64,000 nt of DNA from Eledone cirrhosa (lineage: Eukaryota): positions 46,748,001 through 46,812,000 of the forward strand of contig OZ024744.1 in the NCBI GenBank assembly GCA_964016885.1. The letters run 5' to 3'. A program made the translations under genes and the position numbers. Of the stretch, positions 1,609 through 63,584 are shown piece by piece. How positions within the stretch are numbered: position 1 is the stretch's first letter; each line of letters opens with the position of its first letter. The notes beneath the pieces were generated by a model. The model was not told where the DNA came from, made no database searches, and saw only the letters and a list, made by a program, of their open reading frames with translations.

Positions 1609-2315
1609 AATGAATAATAACAGGTAGACATCATAAAAAGGTAATTTATTCCGTGTGCTTACAAGTGTTTCCATGGTGGTACTGCAGCCTATTTCCGCTA
1701 CGTGCAAATTCACAAGTACTTGCAGAACTCGAATATAAATGGTAAATGTACAATGTAAATACCCTTAAGTGGGGTTGTTGGGGAAGATAGAGTAGAACAG
1801 GAAGAGGGAAAAGTAGGGAAGAGGGAGAGAGAAAGAAAGATATGCAGGGGTTGGCGAAGTAGGAGAGAGTGGCTTGTAGATATCTTAATCAAAATGTTAT
1901 GGTAGGGGTTTTATTATACTGGTTACTTTTGGAGAGATGCGTTGATAGTTAAGGTCGGAATTATTTATTGCCCCAGAGGGCAGGTTCATAGATGTTGAGA
2001 GGGAGGTAGGTCAAAGGTGAGAGAGAGAGAGTGTAATGGATGTAGAGAGAGATATAGGTAGAGAGGGGACAGATAAAGTATGTGTGGTGAGTGAACTTTT
2101 GGTTTTGTAGTAGTAATCTAGGAATTGCACTGAGTTACCATGTATAGTGATAAGCAGTGTATTGACTTGTAGTGTGGGGGGAAGAGAAGGTTGTTAGCTA
2201 GAAAGTGGTGTTATAGTTACGGGTTCGAATGTTAAGTTATTTTATAGTGAGAGAATTTAGCTTTTAGTTTGTGGTTGCAGTATAATGATCGTTCAATTCT
2301 ATCGTTAAGTAGTTT
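1606..2315 (-). repeat. 3' pseudo-LTR of the PLE (hammerhead 5' half deleted)
   Basis: Near-identical to 4749-5488, except that 35 nt (4877-4911) are replaced by TATA at 1734-1737. Confidence 0.92.
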
Positions 2316-4553
2316 GTTTTTGGATTTTAATATGTAAAATAGCTCAAGGTTACATAACCTGCAGTACTTCAATCCACTCCGATATGCACTTGCGCTGGAA
2401 AGTATGTCCCATTTTAAGGTGAACTGTTGGTTGTGTTCACGGAGTTGCCAGGTCTTGTTGGCGAGCGTGGTCACAAAACGGTGATTCGGATGTTTGATTG
2501 AGAATCGATGACGGTACCAGCGAGATTTAAACGATGTGGTGGTAGATCCGATATAATACCATTTCTGGTCGTTCGACTCAACCGTGCATTGGTAAACAAT
2601 GTTGGACTTTAGGCATTCATTCTGCAATGGACATCTTTCAGGTAGATGGCAGTTACATTCTTTGTTGTGGGTAGCGGGTATACCATGGATAGGTACAGGT
2701 GGGTTGTGTAATACCCGTCTCCCATTTAGTGGTTGGGAGGCAGATATCGCGTTCTGCCCATCTGTTACTAAAATGTTTTGTTTTGTAGAGTTGTTTAATT
2801 GCCTTAAGTTAAGTTTTTTTATGTATGCTTCAAGGTTTGGTGCCGTGGAGTATGATAGTCTAATAGTTTTAGAGTTCAGAATTTTGCTGTATTTATGGGA
2901 ACTAGGGAAGTGTTTGTTGATTAATTTAAAGAATGAAAGAGATAGTTTTGTACTAATCGAGGCATTAAAAATAGGATTGTACCAGATATACTTTCTACAA
3001 CGTGATTTATTTGGTGGTGATCTTCTATTATTAGTGTGTCTGGTAGTACTCTGTGTGTGTGTGTGTGCTTGTGTTTTAGTCCCCCGGTTACGTATACCTT
3101 GATTTCGTGTAGAGCTATGTGTGTTGTGGAAATTCCTATCGATGTATTCTATTGTATCCCGGTGGTCAGCATTCCTTAATGCATTATTGTAGTATTCAGC
3201 ATGTTCACTAAAAATATCAGAGTTAGACGATAGGCGAGAGATTCTAAGAGAGATACTCCGGGGAACTGATTTGATCATGGAGAGTGGGTGGTTAGAGTTA
3301 AAGTTAATATACGTAAGGTTCTCATTTACCTTGTGGAAGGGTCGTATCTGTCCTGTATTTAAATTAAGAGTTACGTCCAGAAAGTTTACTACTTTAAGAT
3401 TGTATTCGTATGTTATTTTTAAACCCAGTTCACTAAAAGATTTTCTAATATTTTTCCGTAGCCTTTCAAGATTTTGGTTATTCAAGTTATTAACTAATAA
3501 GAGCCCGTCATCTCTGTATATCCCCCCGTGTAGATTACTAAATTTACTATGTAATATGTGGGCTATGTAAATTCCCACGAGATCCGTGACCTCCGCCGAG
3601 TCGTTGGAACCCATGGTAATATCGAAATTTGTGGGTCTGTCCTTACGTTCCCAGTAGCAGTTATCGAACTTAATAATGGTTTTTCTAGCCTCGAGAATAA
3701 TATTAATTTCGTCCTCCGTTAGGTCGGAATTGGCCTTAGCAAACGATAGGGCCTTACGTAAAGTGCTTGGTGAGATGGAAGAGTAGTATTCGTCTATGTC
3801 AAATTGTATAAACTTAGATTTATTCTTATTCTTAACATTATTAAACCAGCGAATTGCTTCGCTAGTGTTGCCCCATAATTTAATTTCAATTTTCTTTTTC
3901 ACTTGAGTTATTACTCTGTCAAGTATATGTTTGCTAATTTTCCCTATGTCTGATTTAGAAGGGCATATAAGTCTGATCTTAGGGTTAGAGTCAAAATTTA
4001 CCTTATGGTCCTTCAGGTTGAAGGTGGGGGTAGCGGGTATAATCGGCTCGGTTCTATCGTCTATCTTGAGATTCTTCACCACTTTATATGCCTCGTTGTT
4101 AATATTTGCTAGCGTAGTTTCATTTGTTTTTCTATATTTTTTGTGTAGTTCGTTGCGTATGAAGTTATTGTACGTATCGATATCCATGGTATACACGTTA
4201 GAAGTCTTGTCAGCTTTCACAACAATTCCATTGGTATTTTGCAATCTTCGGAGTAGTGCTTTCATGTTGTTCTGCAGCTCATTATTACTATGTTTGTTGA
4301 ACTTAATGTTCATGGTCGTTTTCAATAAATCCTGTTCGAAAGCTTCGAGGTGAGGGTTTGTAGGTGGGTTTTTACATGATCTAAAACTATATGATTCAGA
4401 CGAGTGATTGGCGCGTCCTTTATCGAAATGGAAAGCTTTCCATCGTACACGCCGAATGAAGTCGTTACTGCGTTGAATCATACTAAGAATATATTCCCTT
4501 TTGTTAGGTATAGGTATGTTTTTAAGTGACATACCTATATGATGCCTTTCCAT
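2232..4553 (-). CDS. PLE polyprotein: reverse transcriptase + Cys-rich linker + GIY-YIG endonuclease (773 aa)
   Basis: Uninterrupted ORF. RT motifs ADKTS, QFDIDEYYSSI, MGSNDSAEVTDL, IYRDDGL, FLDVTL; linker CNCHLPERCPLQNEC; endonuclease NIVYQC...YYIGST..FKSRWYRH; C-terminal CRLC...CNH. Confidence 0.95.
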   Translation of the reverse strand: MERHHIGMSLKNIPIPNKREYILSMIQRSNDFIRRVRWKAFHFDKGRANHSSESYSFRSCKNPPTNPHLEAFEQDLLKTTMNIKFNKHSNNELQNNMKALLRRLQNTNGIVVKADKTSNVYTMDIDTYNNFIRNELHKKYRKTNETTLANINNEAYKVVKNLKIDDRTEPIIPATPTFNLKDHKVNFDSNPKIRLICPSKSDIGKISKHILDRVITQVKKKIEIKLWGNTSEAIRWFNNVKNKNKSKFIQFDIDEYYSSISPSTLRKALSFAKANSDLTEDEINIILEARKTIIKFDNCYWERKDRPTNFDITMGSNDSAEVTDLVGIYIAHILHSKFSNLHGGIYRDDGLLLVNNLNNQNLERLRKNIRKSFSELGLKITYEYNLKVVNFLDVTLNLNTGQIRPFHKVNENLTYINFNSNHPLSMIKSVPRSISLRISRLSSNSDIFSEHAEYYNNALRNADHRDTIEYIDRNFHNTHSSTRNQGIRNRGTKTQAHTHTQSTTRHTNNRRSPPNKSRCRKYIWYNPIFNASISTKLSLSFFKLINKHFPSSHKYSKILNSKTIRLSYSTAPNLEAYIKKLNLRQLNNSTKQNILVTDGQNAISASQPLNGRRVLHNPPVPIHGIPATHNKECNCHLPERCPLQNECLKSNIVYQCTVESNDQKWYYIGSTTTSFKSRWYRHRFSIKHPNHRFVTTLANKTWQLREHNQQFTLKWDILSSASAYRSGLKYCRLCNLELFYILKSKNKLLNDRIERSLYCNHKLKAKFSHYKIT

Positions 4554-4748
4554 ATTAATGCCGTGTGTCGGTGTGGTTGCTCAACTGTGTAGGAGGCGAT
4601 TATTAGGTATAGGATTATCCAAGATGTAGTAATGGTTAATTACTACACTGGATATGGTTGACGTACGGTAAGAGGGTACTCTACGAGTTATGGAAGAATT
4701 GTTCAAGAAACTTAGTTCCTGATCCTTCAGTATTCCGGAGTGTATATG

Positions 4749-39665: not shown

Positions 39666-40528
39666 AGTGGAGTTACTTAAATGAAAATATAGGTGGCCCT
39701 GAAAAGGGCCAAATTACAAAACAAATTTAAGTTAATTAGAAAACAAGTCATGGTTATCAAATATATTTGATTTAATCATTTATATTTTCATAATCATGGT
39801 TATCAATGTAGAAAACAACTCATTTTCACCAACAGTGGAGTTACTTCTGACTGCTAATACCATGAACTATATTTTCATTGTCATGGTTATCAATGTAGAA
39901 AACAAATCATTTTTACCAACAGTGGAATTAACTTAAAGTAAAATATAGGTTGCTTTTAAAAGAGCCATATTAGAAAACAAATTTATGGTTATCAAATTTT
40001 TTTCACCAACCCTTTATGAAGAAATGTTTAGAAAACAAATTTTTTTCACCAACCTGATTCAAAAGTATGGATACAGTCCACATGGAAACAAGAGACAATC
40101 ACCATGGAGATTGATGGTATCTGCTGTAGTAGCGGTAGCGATGGAAAGATTGTGATGGTTAATTCCATTAACAATTTGGCCCTTTTAAGGGCCAACTATA
40201 TTTTCATTTAAGTTAACTCCACTGTTGGTGAAAATGACTTGTTTTCTACATTGATAACCATGACTATGAAAATATAAATGATTAAATCCAATTTATTTGA
40301 TAACCATGACTTTCTAATTAACTTAAACTTGTTTTCTAATTTGGCCCTTTTAAGGGCCACCTATATTTTCATTTAAGTAACTCCACTTACATCTATATGC
40401 TTTAATTAAAAAAAAAAAATAGTTTCATTTAAGTAACTTCACTTACATCGATATGCTCAAATAAAAAAAATAAATAAATAAAAAACGCGTGAAAAATTTA
40501 AAAAAAAATTTAAGTAACTCCACTTACG
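39666..40528. repeat. Inversion centre of the satellite: inverted arms (39666-~39990 vs ~40174-40390), short unique core, then ~3 reverse-oriented satellite units
   Basis: GTGGAGTTACTTAAATGAAAATATAGGTGGCCCT..AAAGGGCCAAATTA..CATGGTTATCAA..CACCAACAGTGG on the left; its reverse complement on the right. Confidence 0.85.
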
Positions 40529-42209: not shown

Positions 42210-42816
42210 GTCAGGTCACCATTTGGTGCCACTGGTAACATGTATCCCAGTACAACCTGTCCCATGGTCGAGTCGTTGGCGACTAAACTGGCAACCCCAC
42301 CAAAGTGTCTTGGTGAGGAGGGTGACTTTGGACATCCTGCAGGACTAAAAACAAAACCTCTCAAAGGGCAAAGAGGTCTTAAGAGTCAATGGCCATCCAA
42401 AGTCACCGGGAGAGATGACCCCTTAGCCTTTGTCAAGGCAGAATTCTAGAAGGAAAACTCTGATAAAACACCTGCAACCCTGATGGTATCCAATGATGTT
42501 GACTTGTTCTTCTTTTTGGTAAATATCATCTTGGTTAAGCGAGTGGGACTGGCTTTGTGCAGTGCCTTTGCTCACTATTAAAGCCTCACGGCACAGGCAT
42601 TGCCTTATATCTAGAGATCTCTCTGCACTTGTCGTCACATGGTACCATGGGCCCAGCATAATGTGTCAATAATTGTCGCAAGTGTAGTGTTTGTACCAGA
42701 GTTTTCAAGTCACTGGCTGGACTAAAAAATCACACTCGTTCAACGCATCGGTAAGGGTTCTCCTACATGGATATAAAGTAGTGGCCATACTCGAAAACGA
42801 GTTGGCAGCCACCACC
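42210..42816. other. ~600 bp higher-GC island interrupting the minisatellite; probable retroelement UTR fragment(s)
   Basis: Abrupt composition change with the same minisatellite on both sides; no recognisable protein. Confidence 0.4.
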
Positions 42817-43935
42817 ATGTGTGTATATGTATATTTGTGTACGTCGCCATATATATATGTATGTGTGTGTATATATGTATATTTGTGTACGTCGCCATAT
42901 ACGTATGTGTGTATATGTATATGTATATTCGTGTACGTCGCCATATATGCATGTATGTATGTGTATGTATATTTGTGTACGTCGCCATATATATATGTAT
43001 GTATGTGTGTATATGTATATTTGTGTACGTCGCCATATATGTATGTATGTATATGTATATTTGTGAACGTCGCCATATATGTATGTATGTGTGTATATGT
43101 ATATTTGTGTACGTCGCCATATATGCATGTATGTATGTGTGTATATGTGTGTATATGTATATTTGTGTACGTCGCCATATATTTATGTATGTATGTGTGT
43201 ATATGTATATTTGTGTACGTCACCATATATATATATGTATGTATGTGTGTGTATATTTGTGTACGTCGCCATATATATATGTATGTATATGTGTATATGT
43301 ATATTTGTGTACGTCGCCATATATGTATGTATGTATATGTATATTTGTGAACGTCGCCATATATGTATGTATGTGTGTATATGTATATTTGTGTACGTCG
43401 CCATATATGCATGTATGAATGTGTATGTATATTTGTGTACGTCGCCATATATATATGTATGTATGTGTGTATATGTATATTTGTCTACGTCGCCATATAT
43501 GTATGTATGTATATGTATATTTGTGAACGTCGCCATATATGTATGTATGTGTGTATATGTATATTTGTGTACGTCGCCATATATGCATGTATGCATGTGT
43601 GTATATGTATATTTGTGTACGTCACCATATATATATATGTATGTATGTGTGTGTATATTTGTGTACGTCGCCATATATATATGTATGTATATGTGTATAT
43701 GTATACTTGTGAACGTCGCCATATATGTATGTATGTGTGTATATGTATATTTGTGTACGTCGCCATATATGCATGTATGTATGTGTGTATATGTGTGTAT
43801 ATGTATATTTGTGTACGTCGCCATATATGTATGTATGTATGTATGTGTGTATATGTATATTTGTGTACGTCGCCATATATGTATGTATGTATGTGTGTAT
43901 ATGTATATTTGTGTACGTCGCCATATATGTATGTG
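42817..43935 (+). repeat. Same GTACGTCGCCAT minisatellite, second block
   Basis: Read directly from the sequence. Confidence 0.92.
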
Positions 43936-44558
43936 TTTGTACTGTGTGTGTTTAGCCCTAACTTTTTATGTATATGTATATCATGCTTTTCTATGTGTTT
44001 TTGTGTTTCAGTTATAGTTTTTTTGTTTCCTTGCCTTTTGTTGTTTGTCTTTACCCCCGTGGCTGTGCATGTTTGTTTTTTGTTTTTATTTCATTTTTAT
44101 TTTTATTCTTATTTTATATTTATTTTTGATCATTTTGTTTGTTTTTATATATATTTTTTTTTGTATAAGGTTATTTATTTTTATTTTTATTTTTAATTTT
44201 TATTATATTATTTTACCATTTCATTTTTATATTTTAATTTATGTATATATTCTTATTTATATGTGCGTATATAGTCCTCCATCAACTACTATATACCTAT
44301 TTTTCTTCTACCTTCATTTATGTATACGTGTTTTCAAATGCGTACATACACATATATTTTATACTATACACATGCAATTGTATATGTAGATTTATCTATG
44401 CATGTATGTATATATAACATATATATGTAGAAGTTATATTTAATTTGTTGGGATACAACAAGCAAATATTTTTAAAACTGGTATAAAGCACTCAACAAAT
44501 TTTTGGAGTAAAAATACAATATATTAACAAATGGAAACTATATTTATAAAACCATATT

Positions 44559-44623
44559 TATTTCATTATACATATTTCAAGGACACCAAAGCAAATTATG
44601 GTGCGCTTTCATCAGATAAAATA
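44559..44623 (-). ncRNA. Type I hammerhead ribozyme (left arm of palindrome)
   Basis: UAUUUUAU-CUGAUGA-AAGCGCACCA..UGGUGUCCUU-GAAA-UAUGUA-UA^-AUGAAAUA; one helix II mismatch. Confidence 0.85.
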
Positions 44624-44790
44624 TAATATAGATCAGTTTTATAAACAAATATTGACATACCCTTAAAGATTAAAGAATGCGACCATGCCGGTTGGAAGCT
44701 CCCGGATAGAGCTATTCTGGAGCTTCCAACCGACATGGTCGCATTCTTTAAGGGTATGTCAATATTTGTTCATAAAACTGATCTATATTA

Positions 44791-44855
44791 TATTTTATCT
44801 GATGAAAGGGCACCATAATTTGCTTTGGTGTCCTTGAAATATGTATAATGAAATA
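44791..44855 (+). ncRNA. Type I hammerhead ribozyme (right arm of palindrome)
   Basis: Helix I UAUUUUAU/AUGAAAUA; CUGAUGA 44799-44805; 10-bp helix II AAGGGCACCA/UGGUGUCCUU; GAAA 44836-44839; quasi-palindromic helix III; cleavage after A44847; AATAAA 44852-44857. Confidence 0.9.
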
Positions 44856-45513
44856 AATATGGTTTTATAAATATAGTTTCCATTTGTTAATATATATATA
44901 TGTATTCCCCTCTTCCGACCAACCCAACCACGGATTACACATATTGGACATCGCTCCCAAGAATCAACCACATCCCAAGGATATTACCCAGCATTCCACC
45001 ACATCCTCTACGGACTCACCCACGGACATACACTCAAATAGTTTTTTTATTTCCCACACGCCACCTACATCCACAACACGCATAACCACCACACACACGT
45101 GCGTACCACCACATATTTACACACTCAGCCTCTGGAATCCTCTTCCCCACCCTCTAACCCCTCCCCATCCACACACGCACACACACACACCGACCTACAC
45201 CCCACCCACACACGCACACACACACACCGACCTACACCCCACCCACACACGCACACACACACACCGACCTACACCCCACCCACACACACCTTTTCCTGAA
45301 CATGCAACCCCGTTCTTCCCCCAACTCTTACTTTCACATACACACACACCACCCTCTCCCCACTCCACCCTCCACCACCCCTACACGCCCCACACCCTTC
45401 CACCACCTGTTTTCTTCATGTTTATTTTTATTTTTATTATGCTTTTATATTTAATTTCATTTGTACCGTTTCCTCTCACCCTTTTTCTATATGGAACTCT
45501 CTTCCCACACACT

Positions 45514-45586
45514 TTTCACCTGAAGAAGGGCTTATGTCCGAAACGTCGTTCCCCACCACCACCACCCCACTCCCAAGAGCGTGAAA
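45514..45586 (+). ncRNA. Minimal hammerhead motif (GAAACGUC type) with displaced helix I
   Basis: UUUCAC-CUGAAGA-A-GGGC UUAU GUCC-GAAA-CGUC^. The complement GUGAAA lies 33 nt downstream (45581-45586), followed by AATAAA. Confidence 0.7.
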
Positions 45587-45641
45587 CTAATAAACCTTTG
45601 TTCGTACTGCCTCTCTGTTTTGTTCCCGTTCAATTTTTTAC

Positions 45642-45672
<31 letters not shown>

Positions 45673-45755
45673 GTATGTATATATATATATATATGTATAT
45701 ATATATAATGTAAGTATGTATACGTACATACATATATGTATACAGACGTACAGTA

Positions 45756-45758
<3 letters not shown>

Positions 45759-45844
<86 letters not shown>
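45759..45844. repeat. Perfect (TA)n microsatellite
   Basis: Read directly from the sequence. Confidence 0.95.
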
Positions 45845-45848
<4 letters not shown>

Positions 45849-46167
45849 CATACATACAGGTACACATACATATATGTACGTATCAGTTTAGCGGACGCTT
45901 ATTATAACGCCCGCTTTGTTCGTTTGGAAACAAACTGAACAGCCTGAATTTATGCCGTACGGTGTTAAGGCAACCACGTCACCTTTTTGTTCAACACTGA
46001 CACAGCAACGATGTACTAGTTTCAAGCTTGTTAGCTATATTCAGCACCGTATACCCTTCTGCCAGATGGTTGAACGTTCGAAAGTATATACTTTCCTTAT
46101 GAAAATTAACGGCTGAGAGCAGCCTAATTTGCATATCGAGTGAGTTCGGCCAGGCGTACCGAGAACG

Positions 46168-46395
46168 ATAAGTTGTAATAAAATGAAAACGAAATTTCAT
46201 TTCTCACTCTTAGTACGGCACTTACTTAAATGTAAGTATGTATGTATACGTACATACATATATGTATACAGACGTACAGTAGCATGTACGTCTGTATACA
46301 TATATGTATGTACGTATACATACATACTTACATTTAAGTAAGTGCCGTACTAAGAGTGAGAAATGAAATTTCGATTTCATTTTATTACAACTTAT
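46168..46395. repeat. ~228 bp hairpin/palindrome
   Basis: ATAAGTTGTAATAAAATGAAA..CAGACGTACA / TGTACGTCTG..TTTCATTTTATTACAACTTAT with a short GTAGCA loop. Confidence 0.9.
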
Positions 46396-46453
46396 ATATA
46401 TATATATATATACGATATTAAATAAATGGAAACTATATTTATAAAACCATATT

Positions 46454-46519
46454 TATTTCATTATATATATTTCAGGGATATCATATTAAAAATATGTTAT
46501 GCCTTCTTCAGACAAAATA
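46454..46519 (-). ncRNA. Type I hammerhead ribozyme at the PLE 3' end
   Basis: UAUUUUGU-CUGAAGA-AGGCAUAACAUAUU uuu AAUAUGAUAUCCCU-GAAA-UAUAUA-UA^-AUGAAAUA; palindromic helix III; overlapping AAUAAA. Confidence 0.85.
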
Positions 46520-46669
46520 CAATATAAACAGTCTTATAAATAGATAGATTCGACATACCTTTCAACTTCGACTTCTATTTGAAAAGTTGATTTGGTAGTG
46601 AAAAAATATTAGGGACAGTTATAAAAAGAAAGAAAGAAAAACGAAGAAAAAGAATAAATGCATGCAACT

Positions 46670-46766
46670 AAATAGAGAGAGATAGATATAGAGAGATAGA
46701 TAGAGAGAAGAAATTCATGTAAAGAAACAGAGAGAGATATATAGAGAGAGGAAAAAACACAGAGGG

Positions 46767-46797
<31 letters not shown>

Positions 46798-46862
46798 AGA
46801 GAGGAGAGAGAGAGAGAGAGAAAATATAGAGAGATAGATATAGATAGAGATAGAGAGAAAGA
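46670..46862. repeat. (GA)n/(GATA)n microsatellite region
   Basis: Read directly from the sequence. Confidence 0.85.
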
Positions 46863-47881
46863 AAATAGGTAGTTGGGCACCAGTTGAATGACGTATCAAT
46901 GATATATTTATTTATTTATTTATTTATTTAGCTCTAGTATTAATGTAGAGGGAGATATATGTGGTTAAGAGAGAAAACAGCCGTTACATATAGAGAAAAG
47001 AAAAATATCCAGACATAAACGAGGCAGATTTAAAACACTATGTTTCATCAATGTAAAAAATATCAATTCGTATAAAACAGGCATTATAATGTAAATATCA
47101 GTATTCATGAATGAGACACGTATCAATAATGTGTGAAAAATAATGATCATATGTCTAGTTTAAAATTCCTAGGTTTATATTAGAGTTGAGATAAAATAGA
47201 AGGTTATCCCAGATTTTATACTATATACATCAATGTGAATTTACGTGATCAGCTCTGCAAATTCCTATTTCACACGAAAACATTCTCATTGTGCTATAAA
47301 AATTCTAGTATACATATATGTGTACATACACACAAATATATATAGAGTCTACATTAATTTTAACAATACTATTCATGTCTTTACTCTACATGATTATCGT
47401 TCAAGCATAAATAGAGAACAGATATCAATATATCAATAAAAATATCAGAAACAAAAAATAAATAAAAAACAAAAAAATCAAAAAAATATTAAAGATAAAA
47501 ATATTAAAAATATTAAAAATATTAAAATAAAAATAAAACATATATGCCCCGCAAATCAACCACAGAGATGAACCCTTCAAAGTTAATTGACAATATATTG
47601 CCAAGTTCGTTATAAGCATCAGAATCAAAAGCAAACAAAACCAAAAATTATTTACCAAATCCTGTCTAGCAGAAAACATTCCAAAAGTTTAGGATACCCA
47701 TTTGATCTACAGATGGTCTTATATTTAATATAGAAGTTTATCTAGTGTAAAATTTATTCGATATATTTGGAGCATCAGCTTTTAGGGTAGTTTAATTATT
47801 CATGAAGAATGTTTAAAATAAAAAGGAATCGAAAGATTTATCGGCGAGTTTCATAAATAATTATAAATCAAATTAAATATA

Positions 47882-48767
47882 CTACATTTTAAATTTATAT
47901 TTATATTTAAAAGTTGAGTTCAATCTATGTCTGCAGCAACTGAATAAATTTGTCCGTAAATTAAGGGAATTTTTAGATTTTAGTATAAAGAATATCTCCT
48001 CCGCGCAGAGGTCACATGTCTCAGAGGATGAATTAAAAGGAATCCCTCTTGAGACTATATTCCAAGCCGTTGAATATCCAACGATATCATGCCTAAGTTG
48101 CCAGAGTAAGCCTGATAGTGATGTTGAGGATTTTTTGCTTGGATCTGTGAAAGAATTCTTGTGGTTATTATAGCGAAGTTTAAATTCTGTCGAGGTGGAA
48201 CCAACATAGTTAAAAGAATTTAAGTCCGTTTTAACATTACAGTTGTATATTATATTTTTAACTAAGCAATTGTTATTTAACGGACATTTAGATCTATCTC
48301 TACAGTTACATTTGTTAACTTGGATATTATTTATGCTATTATCGGTATTTTGGCTAGGTTTTAAATTCCTATTATTTATTCTATTAATATTTTGTGCTAA
48401 ATTTTTGGTGGATGAGTAGGTTAATTTTATAGTATGTCTATTGAAAATTGAGTGATACCTATGTGTTCTAGGGAAGCGATTATCAAGAGCATTAAAAAAT
48501 AGTTTAGCGATGTGGGTTTTAATGTTTAGTGAGAAAGGGGGGCCAAACCATATTATATTCCTAGTTCTATTTCTTTTTTGGCTTTTGGAATTATTGTAAT
48601 GCTTTCTATTATAGTTGTTAAAGTTGTTGCCGTAATTAAAATTGTTGTTATTTTGGTTAGTTTGTCTATTATTATCTATGTACATAATTTTATCACTATA
48701 TCCTGCTCTAGCTAACGCTTCATTGTAATACTGGGCTTTTTCGTCGAAAATCTTTTTATTAGATGAG
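47882..48767 (-). pseudogene. C-terminal third of a PLE polyprotein (linker + GIY-YIG)
   Basis: Homologous to the last ~330 aa of the 2232..4553 protein; RT core missing. Confidence 0.88.
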
Positions 48768-48973
48768 ATATATATATATATGCTACTGAGATATATATAT
48801 ATATGCTACTGTACGTCTGTATACATATATGTATGTACGTATACATACTTACATTATATATATATACATATATATATATATATACATACATATATATATA
48901 TATACATATATATATATAGTAAAAAATTGAACGGGAACAAAACAGAGAGGCAGTACGAACAAAGGTTTATTAG

Positions 48974-49046
48974 TTTCACGCTCTTGGGAGTGGGGTGGTG
49001 GTGGTGGGGAACGACGTTTCGGACATAAGCCCTTCTTCAGGTGAAA
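48974..49046 (-). ncRNA. Mirror copy of the minimal hammerhead motif at 45514-45586
   Basis: Plus strand GACGTTTCGGACATAAGCCCTTCTTCAGGTGAAA. Confidence 0.7.
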
Positions 49047-49671
49047 AGTGTGTGGGAAGAGAGTTCCATATAGAAAAAGGGTGAGAGGAAACGGTACAAA
49101 TGAAATTAAATATAAAAGCATAATAAAAATAAAAATAAACATGAAGAAAACAGGTGGTGGAAGGGTGTGGGGCGTGTAGGGGTGGTGGAGGGTGGAGTGG
49201 GGAGAGGGTGGTGTGTGTGTGTGTATGTGAAAGTAAGAGTTGGGGGAAGAACGGGGTTGCATGTTCAGGAAAAGGTGTGTGTGGGTGGGGTGTAGGTCGG
49301 TGTGTGTGTGTGCGTGTGTGGGTGGGGTGTAGGTCGGTGTGTGTGTGTGCGTGTGTGGATGGGGAGGGGTTAGAGGGTGGGGAAGAGGATTCCGGAGGCT
49401 GAGTGTGTAAATATGTGGTGGTACGCACGTGTGTGTGGTGGTTATGCGTGTTGTGGATGTAGGTGGCGTGTGGGAAATAAAAAAAGTATTTGAGTGTATG
49501 TCCGTGGGTGAGTCCGTAGAGGATGTGGTGGAATGCTGGGTAATATCCTTGGGATGTGGTTGATTCTTGGGAGCGATGTCCAATATGTGTAATCCGTGGT
49601 TGGGTTGGTCGGAAGAGGGGAATACATATATATATATTAACAAATGGAAACTATATTTATAAAACCATATT

Positions 49672-49736
49672 TATTTCATTATACATATTTCAAGGACACC
49701 AAAGCAAATTATGGTGCCCTTTCATCAGATAAAATA
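49672..49736 (-). ncRNA. Type I hammerhead ribozyme (palindrome copy 2)
   Basis: Reverse complement of 44791-44855. Confidence 0.88.
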
Positions 49737-49903
49737 TAATATAGATCAGTTTTATGAACAAATATTGACATACCCTTAAAGAATGCGACCATGTCGGTTG
49801 GAAGCTCCAGAATAGCTCTATCCGGGAGCTTCCAACCGGCATGGTCGCATTCTTTAATCTTTAAGGGTATGTCAATATTTGTTTATAAAACTGATCTATA
49901 TTA

Positions 49904-49968
49904 TATTTTATCTGATGAAAGCGCACCATAATTTGCTTTGGTGTCCTTGAAATATGTATAATGAAATA
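49904..49968 (+). ncRNA. Type I hammerhead ribozyme (palindrome copy 2)
   Basis: CTGATGA 49912-49918, helix II, GAAATATGTATA^ATGAAATA. Confidence 0.85.
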
Positions 49969-50591
49969 AATATGGTTTTATAAATATAGTTTCCATTTGT
50001 TAATATATTGTATTTTTACTCCAAAAATTTGTTGAGTGCTTTATACCAGTTATAAAAATATTTGCTTGTTGTATCCCAACAAATTAAATATAACTTCTAC
50101 ATATATATGTTATATATACATACATGCATAGATAAATCTACATATACAATTGCATGTGTATAGTATAAAATATATGTGTATGTACGCATTTGAAAACACG
50201 TATACATAAATGAAGGTAGAAGAAAAATAGGTATATAGTAGTTGATGGAGGACTATATACGCACATATAAATAAGAATATATACATAAATTAAAATATAA
50301 AAATGAAATGGTAAAATAATATAATAAAAATTAAAAATAAAAATAAAAATAAATAACCTTATACAAAAAAAAATATATATAAAAACAAACAAAATGATCA
50401 AAAATAAATATAAAATAAGAATAAAAATAAAAATGAAATAAAAACAAAAAACAAACATGCACAGCCACGGGGGTAAAGACAAACAACAAAAGGCAAGGAA
50501 ACAAAAAAACTATAACTGAAACACAAAAACACATAGAAAAGCATGATATACATATACATAAAAAGTTAGGGCTAAACACACACAGTACAAA

Positions 50592-51452
50592 CACATACAT
50601 ATATGGCGACGTACACAAATATACACGCACATACATACATTTATATATATGGTGACGTACACAAATATACATATACACACATGCATACATGCATATATGG
50701 CGACGTACACAAATATACATATACACACATACATACATATATGGCGACGTTCACAAATATACATATACATACATACATATATGGCGACGTACACAAATAT
50801 ACATATACACAGATACATATATATATGGCGACGTACACAAATATACATACACATACATACATGCATATATGGCGACGTACACAAATATACATATACACAC
50901 ATACATACATATATGGCGACGTTCACAAATATACATATACATGCATACATATATGGCGACGTACACAAATATACATATACACATATACATACATATATAT
51001 ATGGCGACGTACACAAATATACACACACATACATACATATATATATATGGTGACGTACACAAATATACATATACACACATACATACATAAATATATGGCG
51101 ACGTACACAAATATACATATACACACATATACACACATACATACATGCATATATGGCGACGTACACAAATATACATATACACACATACATACATATATGG
51201 CGACGTTCACAAATATACATATACATACATATATGGCGACGTACACAAATATACATATACACACATACATACATATATATATGGCGACGTACACAAATAT
51301 ACATACACATACATACATGCATATATGGCGACGTACACAAATATACATATACATATACACACATACGTATATGGCGACGTACACAAATATACATATATAC
51401 ACACACATACATATATATATGGCGACGTACACAAATATACATATACACACAT
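50592..51452 (-). repeat. GTACGTCGCCAT minisatellite, inverted copy
   Basis: ATGGCGACGTACACAAATATAC units. Confidence 0.92.
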
Positions 51453-51929
51453 GGTGGTGGCTGCCAACTCGTTTTCGAGTATGGCCACTACTTTATATCC
51501 ATGTAGGAGAACCCTTACCGATGCGTTGAACGAGTGTGACTTTTTAGTCCAGCCAGTGACTTGAAAACTCTGGTACAAACACTACACTTGCGACAATTAT
51601 TGACACATAATGCTGGGCCCATGGTACCATGTGACGACAATAAATGGGTTTATAAAGAACAGAATGAGATAAACAAGACAAAGTTAGATAAAATAAATCA
51701 GCTGTAAGGATATTATACGATATATTTATAATATTTTAATATATTTTTACTGGTCGTCTGCTCCCATTGATAGAGAGAGGAGTGGTGGGAGGTAGCCATA
51801 ACAACCGTGGTAGCAGCACTGAGGTTTGTTTTTAAAGAAGTGAATACAAGAAAAACAAGCAACAAATTTAATTGACTAAAATTAGTTTAAACATCTAAAT
51901 CTTAAGAATATTAAATCTCTTTAGCCCTT

Positions 51930-54029
51930 CAAGATGTGTATGAAGAGAAAGAAGACGTTTTAGTGTCGTATGACATAGAGGATAACTGGAATTTCTTACG
52001 TGACAACTTACTGCAGGCTACTGAAGAAACTTGTGGCTGGAGCAGAGCTCCGACCAGACAGAGAATGACCTGGTGGTGGAACAACACGGTAGATAAGGCC
52101 ATCTGAGACAAAAGACTAGCATGGAACGCTTGGGAAAATGGTGGGAGTAGAGATCGATACACAGGTGCTAAGAAAGAAACTAGACGTTAGGTGTACTTAG
52201 CACGCACGGAGGCTGAGAGTATGAGGTTTGCCAATGTTCTGCGACGGGAAGATCAGAGGCGTGCGGTGTTCCACATTGCAAGGCAGTGTGTCAGTGTAAA
52301 TCAGGATGTTGTTGGAGATAAATGTGTCCAAAATGATGCCGGTGTGCTTAGTGTCACGACTGATCAAAAAAAGGAGGCCTGGAAATGTCATTATGAGAGG
52401 CTGATGAATGTGGAGAATGAATGGGAGAGAGAGAAATTACCCTCAGTAGATCCGACAGAGGGACCAGCTATTGAGTTTGGCGAATATAGTGTACAAGAGG
52501 CAATTAAGGAAATGAAGAATGGCAAGGCTACTGGACTCTCGGGGATAGTTGCTGAGATGCTGAAGGCATCAGAAGTAGGCACTAAACTGGTTGCACGCAT
52601 CATCAATCAAGCTATATATGGTGCTGTCATACCCAAAGACTGTTGCAGCAGTATTCTCATAAATGGGTACAAAGGTAAAGGGGATGCTCTGGAGAGGAGC
52701 AATTATATGGGCATAAAACTGATGGATCAGGTTATGAAAGTGGCAGAAAGGATATTAGCACAACTAATTAGAGAAAGGGTCAAACTAGATGAGATGCAGT
52801 TTGGTTTTGTGTCTGGGAAGAGTACAACAGATGCCCTCTTCTTGATGAGACAATTATAAGACAGGTTCTTAGAGAAGAATAAGCCACTATACTTAGCTTT
52901 TGTTGAGTTAGAGAAGGCCTTTGATAGGGTACCTCGATCTGTCATCTGGTGGTCCCTAAGGAAACTAGGTGTAGAGGAATGGGTGTGAGGACAGTGCAAA
53001 CTTTGTACAGAGGTGCTGTCAGTAAAGTGAGGGTAGGAATGGAGTTTAGTGAGGAATTCCAGATACAAGTAGAAGTACATCAGGGTTTGGTCCTCAGCCC
53101 TCTTGTTCATTATAGTCCTCCAAGCCATAACAGAGCAGTTTAAGACTGCTGTTCATGGGAATTGCTCTATGCTGACGATCTGATTCTTATAGCAGAATCA
53201 GTAGAGGAGCTAGAGAATAAATTCTGGCTATGGAAACAGCAGTTGGAAGCAAGAGGACTGAGAGTGAACCTAGCTAAGACAAAAGTGTTGATGAGTAGAA
53301 AAGAGGACAAAACTCTGATTCCGCCAGGGAAATGGCCATGTTCGATATGCAGAAAAGGAACTGGCATAAATTCTATAAAATGCACACAATGCAGATCCTG
53401 GGTACACAAGAGATGTAGCAGGCAAACTAACAGGTAAGGAGAAATATTTATGCAGTAGATGTACAGGGAAATTAGACAGTAGAAGTCGCATTGATAAACA
53501 CATTTTTCAAATGCAGGCTATAGAAGTGGTGGATAGCTTCCGGTACCTAGGAGATCAGATTAGCATGGGAGGGGGGGGGGGGTGTTCCGAGGCCATAGTA
53601 TCTAGAATAAGGACGGGTTGGAAGAAGTTTAGGGAGCTGCTTCCTCTGCTGACGAAGAAGGGTTTTTCCCTGCGTACGAAAGGCCGGTTATATGATGCCT
53701 GTGTGAGGAGCGCGATGCTGCATGGTAGTGAGACATGAGCAGAAACTGCAGAGGATATGCGAGGGCTGGAGAGAAATGAGGTAAGCATGCTCCGTTGGAT
53801 GTTCAGTGTTAATGTGCGTAAATGACCCAGCATGAATGTGTTGAGAGAGAAACTGTGTCTGAGAGGGATAGAATGTAATGTGTGAGAGAGGAGACTGAGG
53901 TGGTATGGACATGTGATGCGCATGGAGGATGACCGATGGGTGAAGAAGTGCCAGGAAAAGCCAGTTGAAGGAAGACGTGGTAGAGATAGACCACAAAAAA
54001 CAAGGGCGGGGGTGGTGAGAACAGACCTC
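51930..54029 (+). mobile_element. Degenerate RTE-clade LINE, copy A
   Basis: Fragments KGKGDALERSNY, QFGF..STTDA, LYADDL, MLHGSET, RLRWYGHV; several stops and frameshifts. Confidence 0.9.
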
Positions 54030-55974
54030 AGATTTGCCAATGTTCAGCGACGGGAAGATCAGAGGCGTGCGGTGTTCCACATCGCAAGGCAGTGTGTCAA
54101 TGCAAATCAGGATGTTGTTGGAGATAAATGTGTCCGGAATGATGCCGGTGTACTTAGTGTCACGAATGATCGGAAAAAGGAGGCCTGGAAATGTCATTAT
54201 GAGAGACTGATGAATGTGGAAAACGAATGGGAGAGAGAGAAATTACCCTCAGTAGATCTGACAGAGGGACCAGCTGTTGAGATTGACGAATATAGGGTCC
54301 AAGAGGCGATTAAGGAAATGAAGAATGGTAAGGCTGCTGGACCATCGGGAATAATTGCTGAGATGCTGAAGGCATCAGGGGACGTAGGCACTAAACTGGT
54401 TGCACGCATCATCAATAAGGCTATATATGCTGGTGTCATACCCAAAGCCTGGTGCAGCAGTATTCTAATAAATTGCTACAAAGGTAAAGGGGATGCTCTG
54501 GAGAGGAGCAATTATAGGGGTATAAAACTGATGGATAAGGTTATGAAAGTGGCAGAAAGGATATTAGCACAACTAATTAGATAAAGGGTCAAACTAGATG
54601 AGATGCAGTTTGGTTTTGTGCCTGGGAAGAGTACAACAGATGCCCTCTTCTTGATGAGACAATTGCAAGAGAGGTTCTTAGAGAAAAATAAGCCACTATA
54701 CTTAGCCTTTGTTGACCTAGAGAAGGCCTTTGATAGGTACCCCGATCTGTCATCTGGTGTTCCCTAAGGAAACTAGGTGTAGAGGAATGGTTTGTGAAGA
54801 CAGTGCAAGATTTGTACAGGGGGGCTGTCAGTAACGTCATGGTAGGAATGGAGTTTAGTGAGGAATTCCAGATGCAAGTAGGAGTACATCAAGGTTCGGT
54901 CCTCAGCCCGCTCTTGTTCATTATAGTCCTCCAAGCCATAACAGAGGAGTTTAAGACTGGCTGTCCATGGGAACTTCTCTATGCTGACGATCTGGTTCTT
55001 ATAGCAGAATCAGTAGAGGAGCTAGAGAATAAATTCTGGCTATGGAAACAGCAGTTGGAAGCAAGAGGACTGAGAGTGAACCTAGCTAAAACAAAAGTGT
55101 TGATGAGTAGAAAAGAGGACAAAACTCTGATTCCATCAGGGAAATGGCCATGTTCGATATGCAGAAAAGGAACTGGCATACATTCTACAAAATGTATACA
55201 ATGCAGATCTTGGGTACACAAGAGATGTAGTGGAATAGCAGGCAAACTAACAGGTAGGGAGAAATACGTATACAGTAGATGTACAGGGAAATTAGACAGT
55301 AGAAGTCGCATTGATAGACACATTTTTCAAATGCTGGTGGGTGCTATAGAAGTGGTTGATAGCTTCCAGTACCTAAGAGATCAGATTAGCATGGGAGGGG
55401 GTGTTCTGAGGCCATAGTATCTAGAATAAGGACGGGTTGGAAGAAGTTTAGGGAGCTGCTGACGAAGAACGGTTTCTCCCTGCGTACGAAAGGCTGGTTA
55501 TATGATGCATGTGTGAGGAGCGCGATGCTGCATGGTAGTGAGACATGGGCAGCAACTGCAGAGGATATGCGACGGCTGGAGAGAAATGAGGCAAGCATGC
55601 TCTGTTGGATGTGCAATGTCAATGTGCGTACACGACCCAGCATGGATGTGTTGAGAGATAAACTGTGTCTGAGAGGGATAGAATGTAGTGTGCGAGAGAG
55701 TAGACTGCGGTGGTATGGACATGTGATCCCCATGGAGGATGACCGATGGGTGAAGAAGTGCCAGGAAATGCCAGTTGAAGGAAGACGTGATAGAGGTAGA
55801 CCACGAAAAACATGGGCGGAGGTGGTGAGAACAGACCTCAAATCGCTGAAGCTCACGGTGGAGATGACGAAGGACCGTGACAAGTGGAGAGATGCTGGGC
55901 TGAATAAGAGCCGTCCCACCCTTGCAAACAGGGAAAAGTAGACGTAAAATGATGATGATAATGATGATGATGAT
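54030..55974 (+). mobile_element. Degenerate RTE-clade LINE, copy B, with (GAT)n tail
   Basis: GVHQGSVLSPLLF, LLYADDL, RGRPRKTW; ends GACGTAAAATGATGATGAT. Confidence 0.92.
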
Positions 55975-56015
55975 ATATATATACATATATATATTTATAC
56001 ATATATATACATATA

Positions 56016-57714
56016 TCAGGTCATGAAAGTAACAGAAAGAGTTATAGCACAGTTGATTAGGGACCGGGTGAAACTAGATGAGATGCAAATTGGGTTTGTG
56101 CTAGGAAGAGGCACCACTGTGAGGCAGTTACAGGAAAAGTACCTAGCTAAAAGTAAGCCACTCTACCTGGCATTCGTCGATCTTGAGAAAGCTTTTGACA
56201 GAGTTCCTCGTGCTATAATCTGGTAGGCTCTTAGAAAACTAGGAGTAGATGAATGGCTTGTGAAAGCTGTACAAGCCATGTATAGGGGAGCAGTCAGCAA
56301 AGTTAGGATTAGTAATGAGTATAGCGAGGAATTTAGCGTACAGGTCAGTGTCCACCAGAGCTCTGTTCTTATCCCTCTCCTGTTCATCATAGTCCTGCAG
56401 GTAATAACAGAGGAGTTTAAGACCGGATGCCCATGGCAACTCCTGTATGCAGATTACCTCGCACTTATAGCTGAATCTATGGTAGAACTAGAGAAGAAAT
56501 TCCAAACTTGGAAGAAGGGACTAGAAAGAAAGGGTCCAAAAGCCAACCTAACAAAGACTAAGTTCCTTGTAAGTAGAGGAGAAAACAGAACCCAGATCCC
56601 CTCAGGGAAATGGCCTTGCTCAGTATGTAGGAAAGGTGAAGGTAGGAACTCCATTCTCTGCCCCAAATGCAAACAATGGGTACACAAGCGATGTAGTGGG
56701 ATCTCAGGAAGCTTAACTAAGAATGTAGGCTTCACATGTAGCAGCTGTGCTGGGATAGCAAGCAGCAAACAGCCGCAGGAAACTAGTACCACCAAACTCT
56801 GGGAGGGCTCTGTAGAAACAGTAGACAGCTTCTGCTACCTAGGTGACCGAATTAGCAGCGGAGGTGGGTGTTCAGAAAGTACAATAACTAGGGTAGGAAT
56901 GGGATGGAAGAAGTTCAGGGAGCTACTGCCACTGCTAGCTGCAAAGGGCTTTTCCCTCAAAATGAACGGCAGACTGTATGATGCGTGTATCCGAACGGCA
57001 ATGTTACATGGTAGTGAGACCTGAGCGCTGAAGGTAGAAGACTTGCGTAGATTAGAAAGTAACGAATCCTACATGTTCCGATGGATGTGTAATAGTAATA
57101 TACGCGAACGGCAAAGCATAAATGAATTGAGAGAGAGACTGAGCATAAGAGGAAACAAATGCTGTGTGCAGGAGAGGCGGTTGCGTTGGTATGGACATGT
57201 GATGCGTATGAAGGATGACAGCTGCATAAAAAGGTGCAGAGCACTAGAAGTCGATGGAAACTGCGGGGTTGGGAGACCCAAGAAGACCTGGGATGAGGTG
57301 ATAAAAGCTGACCTTACCCAATTACACCTCTCAAAGGCGATAACACACGACCGTGACCTCTGGCGTCACGCAGTAATACAGAAAACCCGACCCCCACGGG
57401 TACAAGCTGAAGCTGAAGCATATAGACAATATGCCCCCACACCCTCCCACTGCAAAGTGGTTATGGAGGTGCTACGGCAAAAAAGCACGCAGCCCACACT
57501 GTAAAGTGGACGTGTAGGTGCTACGGAAAAAAGCACCCACCACTCACTGTAAATGAGGTTGGTGTTAGGAAGGGCATCCGGCTGTAGAAAAAAAGCCAGA
57601 ATCAGTTCCCGTATGAGCAAGACAAGGTCAGCCGACTGGACACTGCCCACAACAGGACAACCCGCCTAACCCATGATAGCGTGAAAGGACGGACGTAAAA
57701 CGGTGATGATGATG

Positions 57715-58059: not shown

Positions 58060-60023
<1,964 letters not shown>

Positions 60024-61064: not shown

Positions 61065-61308
61065 CTAGCAGATGTACCCAGCATTGCTCGGGAAATGAAT
61101 GACAACCTGAATTGTTTAAGGTCGTTTATGGCTTAGCTAGCAATTTCCGAGTGCATGTCAGCTAATTGGCTAGCCAATGAGAGGTCGCCTCAATAGCACG
61201 TGCCAAATCGGCCTAGTACTTCAAAAGTTAAAAGGAGCCTAGTATTTGTACATAGACAGACAGACAGACACACACACACACAGACCGACTTGCTTTTATA
61301 TATATAGA
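61065..61308 (-). mobile_element. Short non-autonomous Helitron-like element
   Basis: Minus strand 5' TCTATATATATAAAA..(GTCT)n, and 3' hairpin CCCGAGCAATGCTGGG then CTAG. Inserted at A|T; same terminal design as 36397-37350. Confidence 0.8.
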
Positions 61309-61351
61309 TGTACAAATATATATATATATACACTTAGAAGAAGACGATTTA

Positions 61352-63584
61352 GATATACACAAAAAGAAGACGTTTTAGAGTCGTATGGCATAGATAATAA
61401 CTGGAATTTCTTCCGTGACAACTTACTGCAGGCTACTGAAGAAACTTGTGGCTGGAGCAGAGCTCCGACCAGACAGAGAGTGACCTGGTGGTGGAACAGC
61501 AAAGTAGATAAGGCCATTAGAGACAAAAGACTAGCATGGAAGGCTTGGAAAAAGGGTGGGAGTAGAGACCGATACACAGCAGCTAAGAGAGAAGCTAGAC
61601 GTCAGGTGTACTTAGCACGCAGGGAGGCTGAGAGTAGGAGGTTTGCCAATGTTCAGCGACGGGAAGATCAGAGGCGTGCGGTGTTCCACATTGCAAGGCA
61701 GTGTGTCAATGCAAATCAGGATGTTGTTGGAGATAAATGTGTCCGGAATGATGCCGGTGTACTTAGTGTCACGAATGATCGGAAAAAGGAGGCCTGGAAA
61801 TGTCATTATGAGAGACTGATGAATGTGGAAAACGAATGGGAGAGAGAGAAATTACCCTCAGTAGATCTGACAGAGGGACCAGCTGTTGAGATTGACGAAT
61901 ATAGGGTCCAAGAGGCGATTAAGGAAATGAAGAATGGTAAGGCTGCTGGACCATCGGGAATAATTGCTGAGATGCTGAAGGCATCAGGGGACGTAGGCAC
62001 TAAACTGGTTGCACGCATCATCAATAAGGCTATATATGCTGGTGTCATACCCAAAGCCTGGTGCAGCAGTATTCTAATAAATTGCTACAAAGGTAAAGGG
62101 GATGCTCTGGAGAGGAGCAATTATAGGGGTATAAAACTGATGGATAAGGTTATGAAAGTGGCAGAAAGGATATTAGCACAACTAGTTAGATAAAGGGTCA
62201 AACTAGATGAGATGCAGTTTGGTTTTGTGCCTGGGAAGAGTACAACAGATGCCCTCTTCTTGATGAGACAATTGCAAGAGAGGTTCTTAGAGAAAAATAA
62301 GCCACTATACTTAGCCTTTGTTGACCTAGAGAAGGCCTTTGATAGGTACCCCGATCTGTCATCTGGTGTTCCCTAAGGAAACTAGGTGTAGAGGAATGGT
62401 TTGTGAAGACAGTGCAAGATTTGTACAGGGGGGCTGTCAGTAACGTCATGGTAGGAATGGAGTTTAGTGAGGAATTCCAGATGCAAGTAGGAGTACATCA
62501 AGGTTCGGTCCTCAGCCCGCTCTTGTTCATTATAGTCCTCCAAGCCATAACAGAGGAGTTTAAGACTGGCTGTCCATGGGAACTTCTCTATGCTGACGAT
62601 CTGGTTCTTATAGCAGAATCAGTAGAGGAGCTAGAGAATAAATTCTGGCTATGGAAACAGCAGTTGGAAGCAAGAGGACTGAGAGTGAACCTAGCTAAAA
62701 CAAAAGTGTTGATGAGTAGAAAAGAGGACAAAACTCTGATTCCATCAGGGAAATGGCCATGTTCGATATGCAGAAAAGGAACTGGCATACATTCTACAAA
62801 ATGTATACAATGCAGATCTTGGGTACACAAGAGATGTAGTGGAATAGCAGGCAAACTAACAGGTAGGGAGAAATACGTATACAGTAGATGTACAGGGAAA
62901 TTAGACAGTAGAAGTCGCATTGATAGACACATTTTTCAAATGCTGGTGGGTGCTATAGAAGTGGTTGATAGCTTCCAGTACCTAAGAGATCAGATTAGCA
63001 TGGGAGGGGGGTGTTCCGAGGCCATAGTATCTAGAATAAGGACGGGTTGGAAGAAGTTTAGGGAGCTGCTGACGAAGAACGGTTTCTCCCTGCGTACGAA
63101 AGGCTGGTTATATGATGCATGTGTGAGGAGCGCGATGCTGCATGGTAGTGAGACATGGGCAGCAACTGCAGAGGATATGCGACGGCTGGAGAGAAATGAG
63201 GCAAGCATGCTCTGTTGGATGTGCAATGTCAATGTGCGTAAACGACCCAGCATGGATGTGTTGAGAGATAAACTGTGTCTGAGAGGGATAGAATGTAGTG
63301 TGCGAGAGAGTAGACTGCGGTGGTATGGACATGTGATCCCCATGGAGGATGACCGATGGGTGAAGAAGTGCCAGGAAATGCCAGTTGAAGGAAGACGTGA
63401 TAGAGGTAGACCACGAAAAACATGGGCGGAGGTGGTGAGAACAGACCTCAAATCGCTGAAGCTCACGGTGGAGATGACGAAGGACCGTGACAAGTGGAGA
63501 GATGCTGGGCTGAATAAGAGCCGTCCCACCCTTGCAAACAGGGAAAAGTAGACGTAAAATGATGATGATGATGATGATGATGAT
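61352..63584 (+). mobile_element. RTE-clade LINE copy D (near-identical to copy B, longer at the 5' end)
   Basis: Same TAA (62191-62193 vs 54582-54584) and same frameshift as B; (GAT)n tail. Confidence 0.92.

Follow-up and report, generated by a model that had tools for sequence, protein, structure and literature searches.

The locus and its parent family

The window, the whole stretch of 64,000 nucleotides of Eledone cirrhosa DNA analysed here (contig OZ024744.1, positions 46,748,001 to 46,812,000), contains a 469-bp palindromic insertion with a hammerhead motif in each arm, a duplicate of this insertion and, between them, a truncated Penelope-like element (PLE). Positions are those of the window, and numbers with a plus or minus sign (+1, S1 at ~+190) are counted along the pseudo-LTR (pLTR).

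42629..45791, + strand: left arm of a ~3-kb inverted duplication (partner 48768-51640, ~98%)
44427..44895, no strand: whole insertion, an inverted short arm plus a long arm with tail, in TA-rich flanks; the same layout occurs in 34/37 genomic palindromes
44427..44518, - strand: 92-nt tail, bounded by the fixed end sites S1 (~+190) and S2 (~+283)
44519..44709, - strand: arm 1, pLTR from +2 to S1, with a 7-nt duplication; 93-95% to the pLTRs of coding copies
44559..44623, - strand: type I hammerhead motif of arm 1
44710..44711, no strand: head-to-head junction, two filler bases, at the putative transcription start
44712..44895, + strand: arm 2, pLTR from +2 to S1, ending in a TA repeat
44753..44759, + strand (mirror 44655-44661, - strand): predicted 5' splice-donor-like GGTATGT at +43
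44791..44855, + strand: type I hammerhead motif with a short self-complementary stem III (AUAUGUAU); predicted cut after A44847
44852..44857, + strand (mirror 44557-44562, - strand): AATAAA in the 3' strand of stem I
46404..48805, - strand: 5'-truncated copy of the sister family Fam-A, with ORF end, 1.4-kb 3' UTR and a pLTR ending at S1 in (TA)n
46454-46519: hammerhead of the Fam-A copy
48768..51640, - strand: right arm of the ~3-kb inverted duplication, starting at the 5' truncation point of the Fam-A PLE
49632..50100, no strand: exact reverse-complement duplicate of the insertion, within the large inverted duplication

The preliminary description of this locus, made from the letters alone, had reported a near-perfect palindrome with a 2-nt loop, and this is what we found: arms of 191 nt (44519-44709) and 184 nt (44712-44895) flank the 2-nt centre AG (44710-44711) and differ by 5 substitutions and one 7-nt duplication. 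The extent given there (44519-44895) was right for the palindrome but missed the 92-nt tail that prolongs one arm, the true insertion being 469 bp long (44427-44895). In coding copies, the tail sequence continues into the ORF start ~45 nt later. The second copy announced at 49632-50008 is present and exact (reverse complement of 44519-44895, 0 differences), but it sits in the ~98% inverted duplication and thus provides no independent evidence of recurrence; as a separate insertion it was rejected, being carried by the duplication. The inner end of the ~3-kb inverted duplication is the 5' truncation point of the Fam-A copy, and the duplication itself may derive from a template switch onto flanking DNA during the Fam-A insertion or from an assembly join.

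Arm and tail together are the pLTR of a coding Hydra-type Penelope-like family (Fam-P), in agreement with the earlier reading of the palindrome as a non-coding PLE derivative with hammerhead motifs. One Fam-P locus (G000:C11:16836000-16845000) shows the order pLTR (93%), ORF pieces, long 3' UTR and second pLTR. The Fam-P ORF start is present in 40 scored of 2004 candidates, and a whole pLTR (+1..+280) lies directly before it, clearly so in 10 of 20 fetched loci. No intact Fam-P ORF was detected in the best 20 of the 2004 candidates; the longest frame from the start codon measures 324 aa of at least 577 possible (17/20 loci with a recognisable start). The sister family Fam-A, which has 76% amino-acid identity to Fam-P in the protein and 80% identity in the pLTR, encodes an intact 742-aa protein, with frames of 745-779 codons stop to stop in 11/12 fetched loci and the same layout of pLTR and tail. 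The match that had been noticed between the tail end of the palindrome and the 3' end of the PLE was recovered at 80-81% over 152 nt (46415-46565).

The RT motifs MGS and YRDD plus IVY..YVG (GIY-YIG) were recognised by eye in the PLE ORFs, while Pfam gave no match in three PLE proteins. The Fam-A ORF contains DKT, CxCX5C and CxxC/CxH motifs and a C-terminal EN (GIY-YIG variant); CxCX5C is also present in a Fam-P copy, and in the single long Fam-P frame, HKT stands in place of DKT. Among named homologues, the best is a protein of Argonauta hians (39%). These motifs, the TA target and the hammerhead fit the Hydra clade as presented in the available part of PMC8557442, and a Neptune or Naiad assignment was dropped for that reason. 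Shared with members such as Hydra-1_Obim are an RT followed by a C-terminal GIY-YIG, the DKT, CxCX5C, CxxC and CxH-like motifs, the (TA)n target typical of the clade and the hammerhead. In contrast, both families have RWR instead of the RWK of the Hydra clade, and the element measures ~4 kb versus <3 kb in the same account. Since the protein and hammerhead of Hydra-1_Obim as printed there differ by eye, the present element belongs to another family. A different PLE at 2232-4580 (- strand) has an open 782-codon frame with the Hydra-type motifs RWK, DKT and CxCX5C and a partial tandem repeat at both ends.

Genomic recurrence and the hammerhead motif

The preliminary description had proposed searching for the palindromic form at independent loci, and there it is found. 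Of 1385 candidates 40 were scored; each of them is a near-full-length palindrome, and together they are spread over 20 contigs. An exact pattern for the head-to-head junction matches at least 128 loci, with 0 matches in the opposite orientation. A 30-nt hammerhead motif has 913 genomic matches (control 0). From the 40 scored palindromes 38 were fetched and 37 analysed, the window's own twin being left out. The tail is on one side in 34/37, on both sides in 2 and on neither side in 1, and a TA run lies within 30 nt of 34/37 and 35/37 outer ends.

An unselected sample was drawn from the first 100 of the 913 hammerhead-motif matches; it comprises 89 loci on two contigs, all with an intact motif as required by the search. 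An inverted partner was identified in 48 of these loci and none was seen in 41, strict short palindromes account for 9/89, and a tandem (head-to-tail) pair was found once (1/89). The strict palindrome is therefore part of a continuum of solo, tandem and inverted stumps. Newer stumps are often inserted where an older stump ends, in its terminal TA run (L003, L019, L081, L015 and L229), and such re-insertions give tandem or tail-to-tail stacks of related families.

The outward-facing type I hammerhead motifs, each overlapping AATAAA, are at the positions first described (44791-44855, + strand, and 44559-44623, - strand). CTGATGA is found at 44799 (+) and 44615 (-), GAAA at 44836, and the triplet is AUA; stem I has 8 bp and stem II 9-10 bp. 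The arm motif thus has the CUGANGA and GAAA core, the NUH triplet and the three stems that define a hammerhead. When 15 variants from two related families are compared, both partners vary at 5 of 19 base pairs; the covariation score is reached by 0/500 shuffles but is inflated by the relatedness of the variants. Pair 10.1-11.1 is A-U where G-C is usual, and in a monomer stem III is limited to 2 bp (self-duplex -2.2 kcal/mol). The core is intact on both arms in 30/37 genomic palindromes. Rfam hammerhead models, suggested earlier as a check, gave no match at E<=1 over the whole window nor at E<=10 over 44760-44900; the Rfam scans returned only hairpin and microsatellite matches below gathering scores. 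PLE hammerheads are described in the accessible portion of PMC4209133 as working poorly and as dimers, with a stem III pattern as here. The hammerhead is probably a passenger, whose predicted cleavage would need an RNA dimer or the protein of the element.

A read-through transcript of the full palindrome is predicted to form a duplex (MFE -275.7 kcal/mol) that would mask the ribozyme, as had been anticipated, while a single arm folds no better than shuffles (z -1.1). The poly(A) signal that had been assigned to both strands did not hold up: AATAAA turns up in 21% of 5000 base-shuffled versions of the arm, so the motif is not above chance, and none of the copies examined ends in poly(A), their ends being two fixed sites 50 and 140 nt beyond AATAAA, into (TA)n. 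AATAAA was accordingly rejected as a demonstrated poly(A) signal. The donor-like GGTATGT is conserved in both families, with position +41 in Fam-A. Another repeat, at 45520-45545 (mirror 49040), has a minimal hammerhead-like core (CTGAAGA, a 4-bp hairpin and GAAA) whose stem I partner is not adjacent.

Centres, arm variants and outer ends

The 37 palindromes fall into 30 junction classes, of which 5 recur in 2-3 copies, and an identical junction was found in both orientations relative to the tail. Overlaps of at least 2 nt are present at 16 junctions, 8 are blunt or have a 1-nt overlap, and 13 contain filler. Arms within a locus diverge by 2.2%; between loci the figure is 3.7%, and 1000 permutations gave nothing below 3.2%. 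In addition, 20 locus-private variants are present on both arms, while 300 permutations gave 0.23 on average and never more than 3. We found no fixed arm-specific difference, that is, no alignment column separates tailed from untailed arms. Among copies with a common junction, no more than one arm-specific variant is shared, and the sites concerned are seen again in unrelated copies. Variants on one arm only number 132, versus 50 on two arms, and the 12 commoner variable columns give 33 discordant versus 32 concordant cases (6 expected by chance). Discordant variants can be explained by later mutation, and for some loci two RNAs from related sources may have been used.

Because the centres vary and the arms share private variants, the palindrome does not replicate as a unit. 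The suggestion of a replicating non-autonomous ambisense element is not supported, given the same observations and the lack of any arm-specific difference; the same arm is also found on its own, in tandem arrangement, in asymmetrically inverted pairs and as pLTR in coding copies.

In the 89-locus sample, 5' arm starts lie at -1..+10 of ACTATCC in 31 cases and more than 20 nt further upstream in 23. Upstream of +1 are ATTTGCAT at -37 and CCAAT at -23. The base before +1 is G where the genome has C in 11/27 junction arms (8 of 35 rows were dropped by eye as read-through or unrelated), and a by-eye count in the first 50 of the at least 128 junction loci gave 19 G, 9 T, 9 C and 3 A. This G excess would fit a capped transcription start, as a weak signal partly explained by microhomology. 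For Fam-A, the start was predicted beforehand from the spacing to the donor motif, and 26 head-to-head loci centre there, with 0 beyond -1. The 5' ends show no pile-up at the hammerhead cut (3/52 inverted pieces within 6 nt of +137, versus 15 at -1..+10). The cut site is intact in the arms. Hammerhead-cut RNA was rejected as the main template.

At their outer ends, arms stop at two fixed sites, S1 (~+190) and S2 (~+283), followed by TA runs. In the 89-locus sample, 38 pairs have a fixed site at both outer ends: 37 of them are S1+S2, one is S1+S1 and none is S2+S2 (p=2.8e-10 versus 50%). The other 10/48 pairs have an end at neither site. All 10 fetched Fam-A head-to-head loci are likewise S1+S2, one of them ending ~10 nt short of S1. 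In 19/37 S1+S2 pairs the S1 arm exceeds the S2 arm by at least 15 nt on the 5' side, and in 18/37 it is contained in the S2 arm or equal to it. In 6 pairs the S2 arm stops at +187..+232, at or before S1, and two coding copies switch strand at +189.

Proposed two-ended priming and its alternatives

We consider it likely that the palindrome is the shortest insertion type of a coding Hydra-type PLE, namely two pLTR copies head to head, made at each insertion by RT from both ends of a cut TA repeat and primed at two fixed sites on one uncleaved RNA. This reading builds on the observed pLTR parentage, variable centres, same-template arms, S1 versus S2 outer ends and the intact cut site and donor motif. 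The pLTR promoter, with its motifs at -37 and -23, would start a capped RNA at +1, and the RT-endonuclease would cut both strands of (TA)n. Priming would take place at S1 from one end and at S2 from the other, on the same RNA, both sites being ATATAT-like. With internal priming so close to the 5' end, only 190- and 283-nt cDNAs would be obtained from an RNA starting at +1, and stumps would be common because pLTR-started RNA can give only such short products. The S2 cDNA would usually displace the S1 cDNA and sometimes stall at it, and the two cDNA ends would be joined through microhomology or short fillers. Exceptions to this clean picture are the palindrome without a tail (1/37), those with a tail on both sides (2/37) and the loci with no inverted partner (41/89). 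A comparable process is the twin priming of L1, in which a second primer from the other target end yields a 5' inversion on one RNA, with joining by microhomology; in L1 the position of the second priming varies, with hardly any overlap between the pieces. The stumps would follow the same two-ended, one-RNA scheme, but with two fixed sites and with pieces that usually overlap.

Against this reading stands that overlapping arms from one RNA need strand displacement, which is supposed here for the PLE RT. No displacement would be needed if two RNA molecules from the same source locus were copied, one per subunit of an asymmetric dimer. Such copying would account for the discordant variants, and the self-complementary hammerhead stem III favours RNA dimers (in the accessible portion of PMC4209133); we nevertheless hold it to be unlikely, as it offers no simple reason for the 37/38 and 10/10 S1+S2 pairs or for the stalling of S2 arms at S1 or shortly before it. 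Private variants common to both arms would equally be expected if one cDNA or antisense template snapped back at a small palindrome and copied itself, a route proposed for rotifer Penelope elements and as self-priming for head-to-head junctions (available text of PMC3846280). The centre has the self-complementary words CCGG and AGCT, 16/37 junctions have microhomology, and this route is compatible with the 18/37 pairs whose S1 arm lies entirely within the S2 arm or matches its extent. In the 19/37 non-nested pairs, however, each arm holds sequence that the other lacks, so neither is a fold-back copy of the other; these pairs are impossible for self-priming and exclude it as a general route, and with filler in 13/37 junctions we judge it improbable.

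The abundance of the form (at least 128 loci), the 5 junction classes in 2-3 of 37 copies and the core intact on both arms in 30/37 could also suggest a self-propagating palindromic non-autonomous element, with centres diversified later by cruciform breakage and arms homogenised by gene conversion. Same-junction copies sharing at most one arm-specific variant (at sites recurring in unrelated copies), one junction in both orientations relative to the tail, the rarity of the strict form within the continuum (9/89 loci) and the palindromes that Fam-A makes at its own start all speak against this, and we find it highly improbable. Finally, fold-back reads might have produced an assembly artefact, as the window copy lies within a large inverted duplication with an identical twin. 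An artefact is barely credible in view of the 5 differing sites and one indel between the arms, the tail on a single arm, the fixed biological sites of the ends and the recurrence of the form on 20 contigs.

Beyond two-ended priming as such, we give about even chances to a wider proposal: the stumps would record the second half of Penelope integration, in which the RT-endonuclease, acting as a dimer, starts a cDNA at either end of a double-strand cut, using two fixed sites of a single RNA that is capped, uncut and unspliced. Tail, inverted pLTR and palindrome would then stem from one event, without an RT-made second strand or fold-back. Ordinary mRNAs would be dead ends that give only pLTR stumps, and promoter-bearing stumps would supply diverged templates mobilised in trans by the intact sister family.

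The comparisons that follow draw on the available portions of the cited papers. Inverted pLTRs and one-sided tails are established Penelope features (PMC8557442; PMC8969392). EN+ PLE insertions (PMC8557442; PMC3846280) resemble the stumps in the hammerhead pLTR, the 5'-truncated copy head to head with an inverted copy, the one-ended tail and the microsatellite target. They differ in that here only the pLTR is present, in >100 copies, with a tail of 92 nt versus 30-40; the stumps go beyond them in the pairing of S1 with S2 ends and in a template common to both arms. For the Poseidon PLE of the anole in vitro, both strands are cut and extended and RT starts at two internal sites bounding the tail, with a dimer as the model and uncleaved RNA as template (PMC11167929). 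The two internal starts bounding the tail, an AT-rich target, the use of both strands and the uncleaved RNA are thus common to both systems. Poseidon belongs to a different clade, its start sites show no strand difference and no target homology, and its two sites are not tied, in that portion of the paper, to inverted copies or to opposite ends of a single insertion. Animal non-LTR retrozymes (PMC7229834; bioRxiv 10.64898/2026.07.22.740005), treated as PLE derivatives in the preprint, are likewise short non-coding type I hammerhead sequences related to PLE pLTRs. They form head-to-tail tandems with circular RNAs, whereas the palindromes here are head to head, with hammerheads outward on opposite strands, so that no strand has two in tandem.

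The palindrome is therefore a minimal form of a known Penelope structure and not a new ribozyme replicon. Our literature search, with thin coverage of subscription papers, returned no description of pLTR-only palindromes with paired start sites, and the origin of inverted pLTRs and tails is stated as open in the parts available of PMC3846280, PMC8557442 and PMC11167929. The S1+S2 pairing, the common template and the non-nested arms link the two in vitro RT starts to the two insertion ends and argue against self-priming as a general route. The statistics of an ordinary Penelope by-product thus make an open mechanistic question testable. Such palindromes can also be mis-annotated as MITEs, miRNA hairpins or retrozymes.

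Several other features were observed in the window. An unrelated non-coding repeat of ~470 nt with a ~100-nt internal 5' hairpin and an inverted partial partner occupies 45860-46395. It has 2116 genomic candidates, in TA-flanked tandem arrays and head-to-head pairs, no hammerhead core was found in it, and this repeat is the more promising candidate for a genuine non-autonomous PLE-like family. Several broken LINE-type reverse transcriptase copies are present at 52191-57504 and 61243-63551 (+ strand), and a C2H2 zinc-finger array at 58662-60023 (- strand). Three matches to the histone 3' stem-loop, near the Rfam gathering score (32.5-34 bits), lie at 39671-39715, 40173-40218 and 40338-40382.
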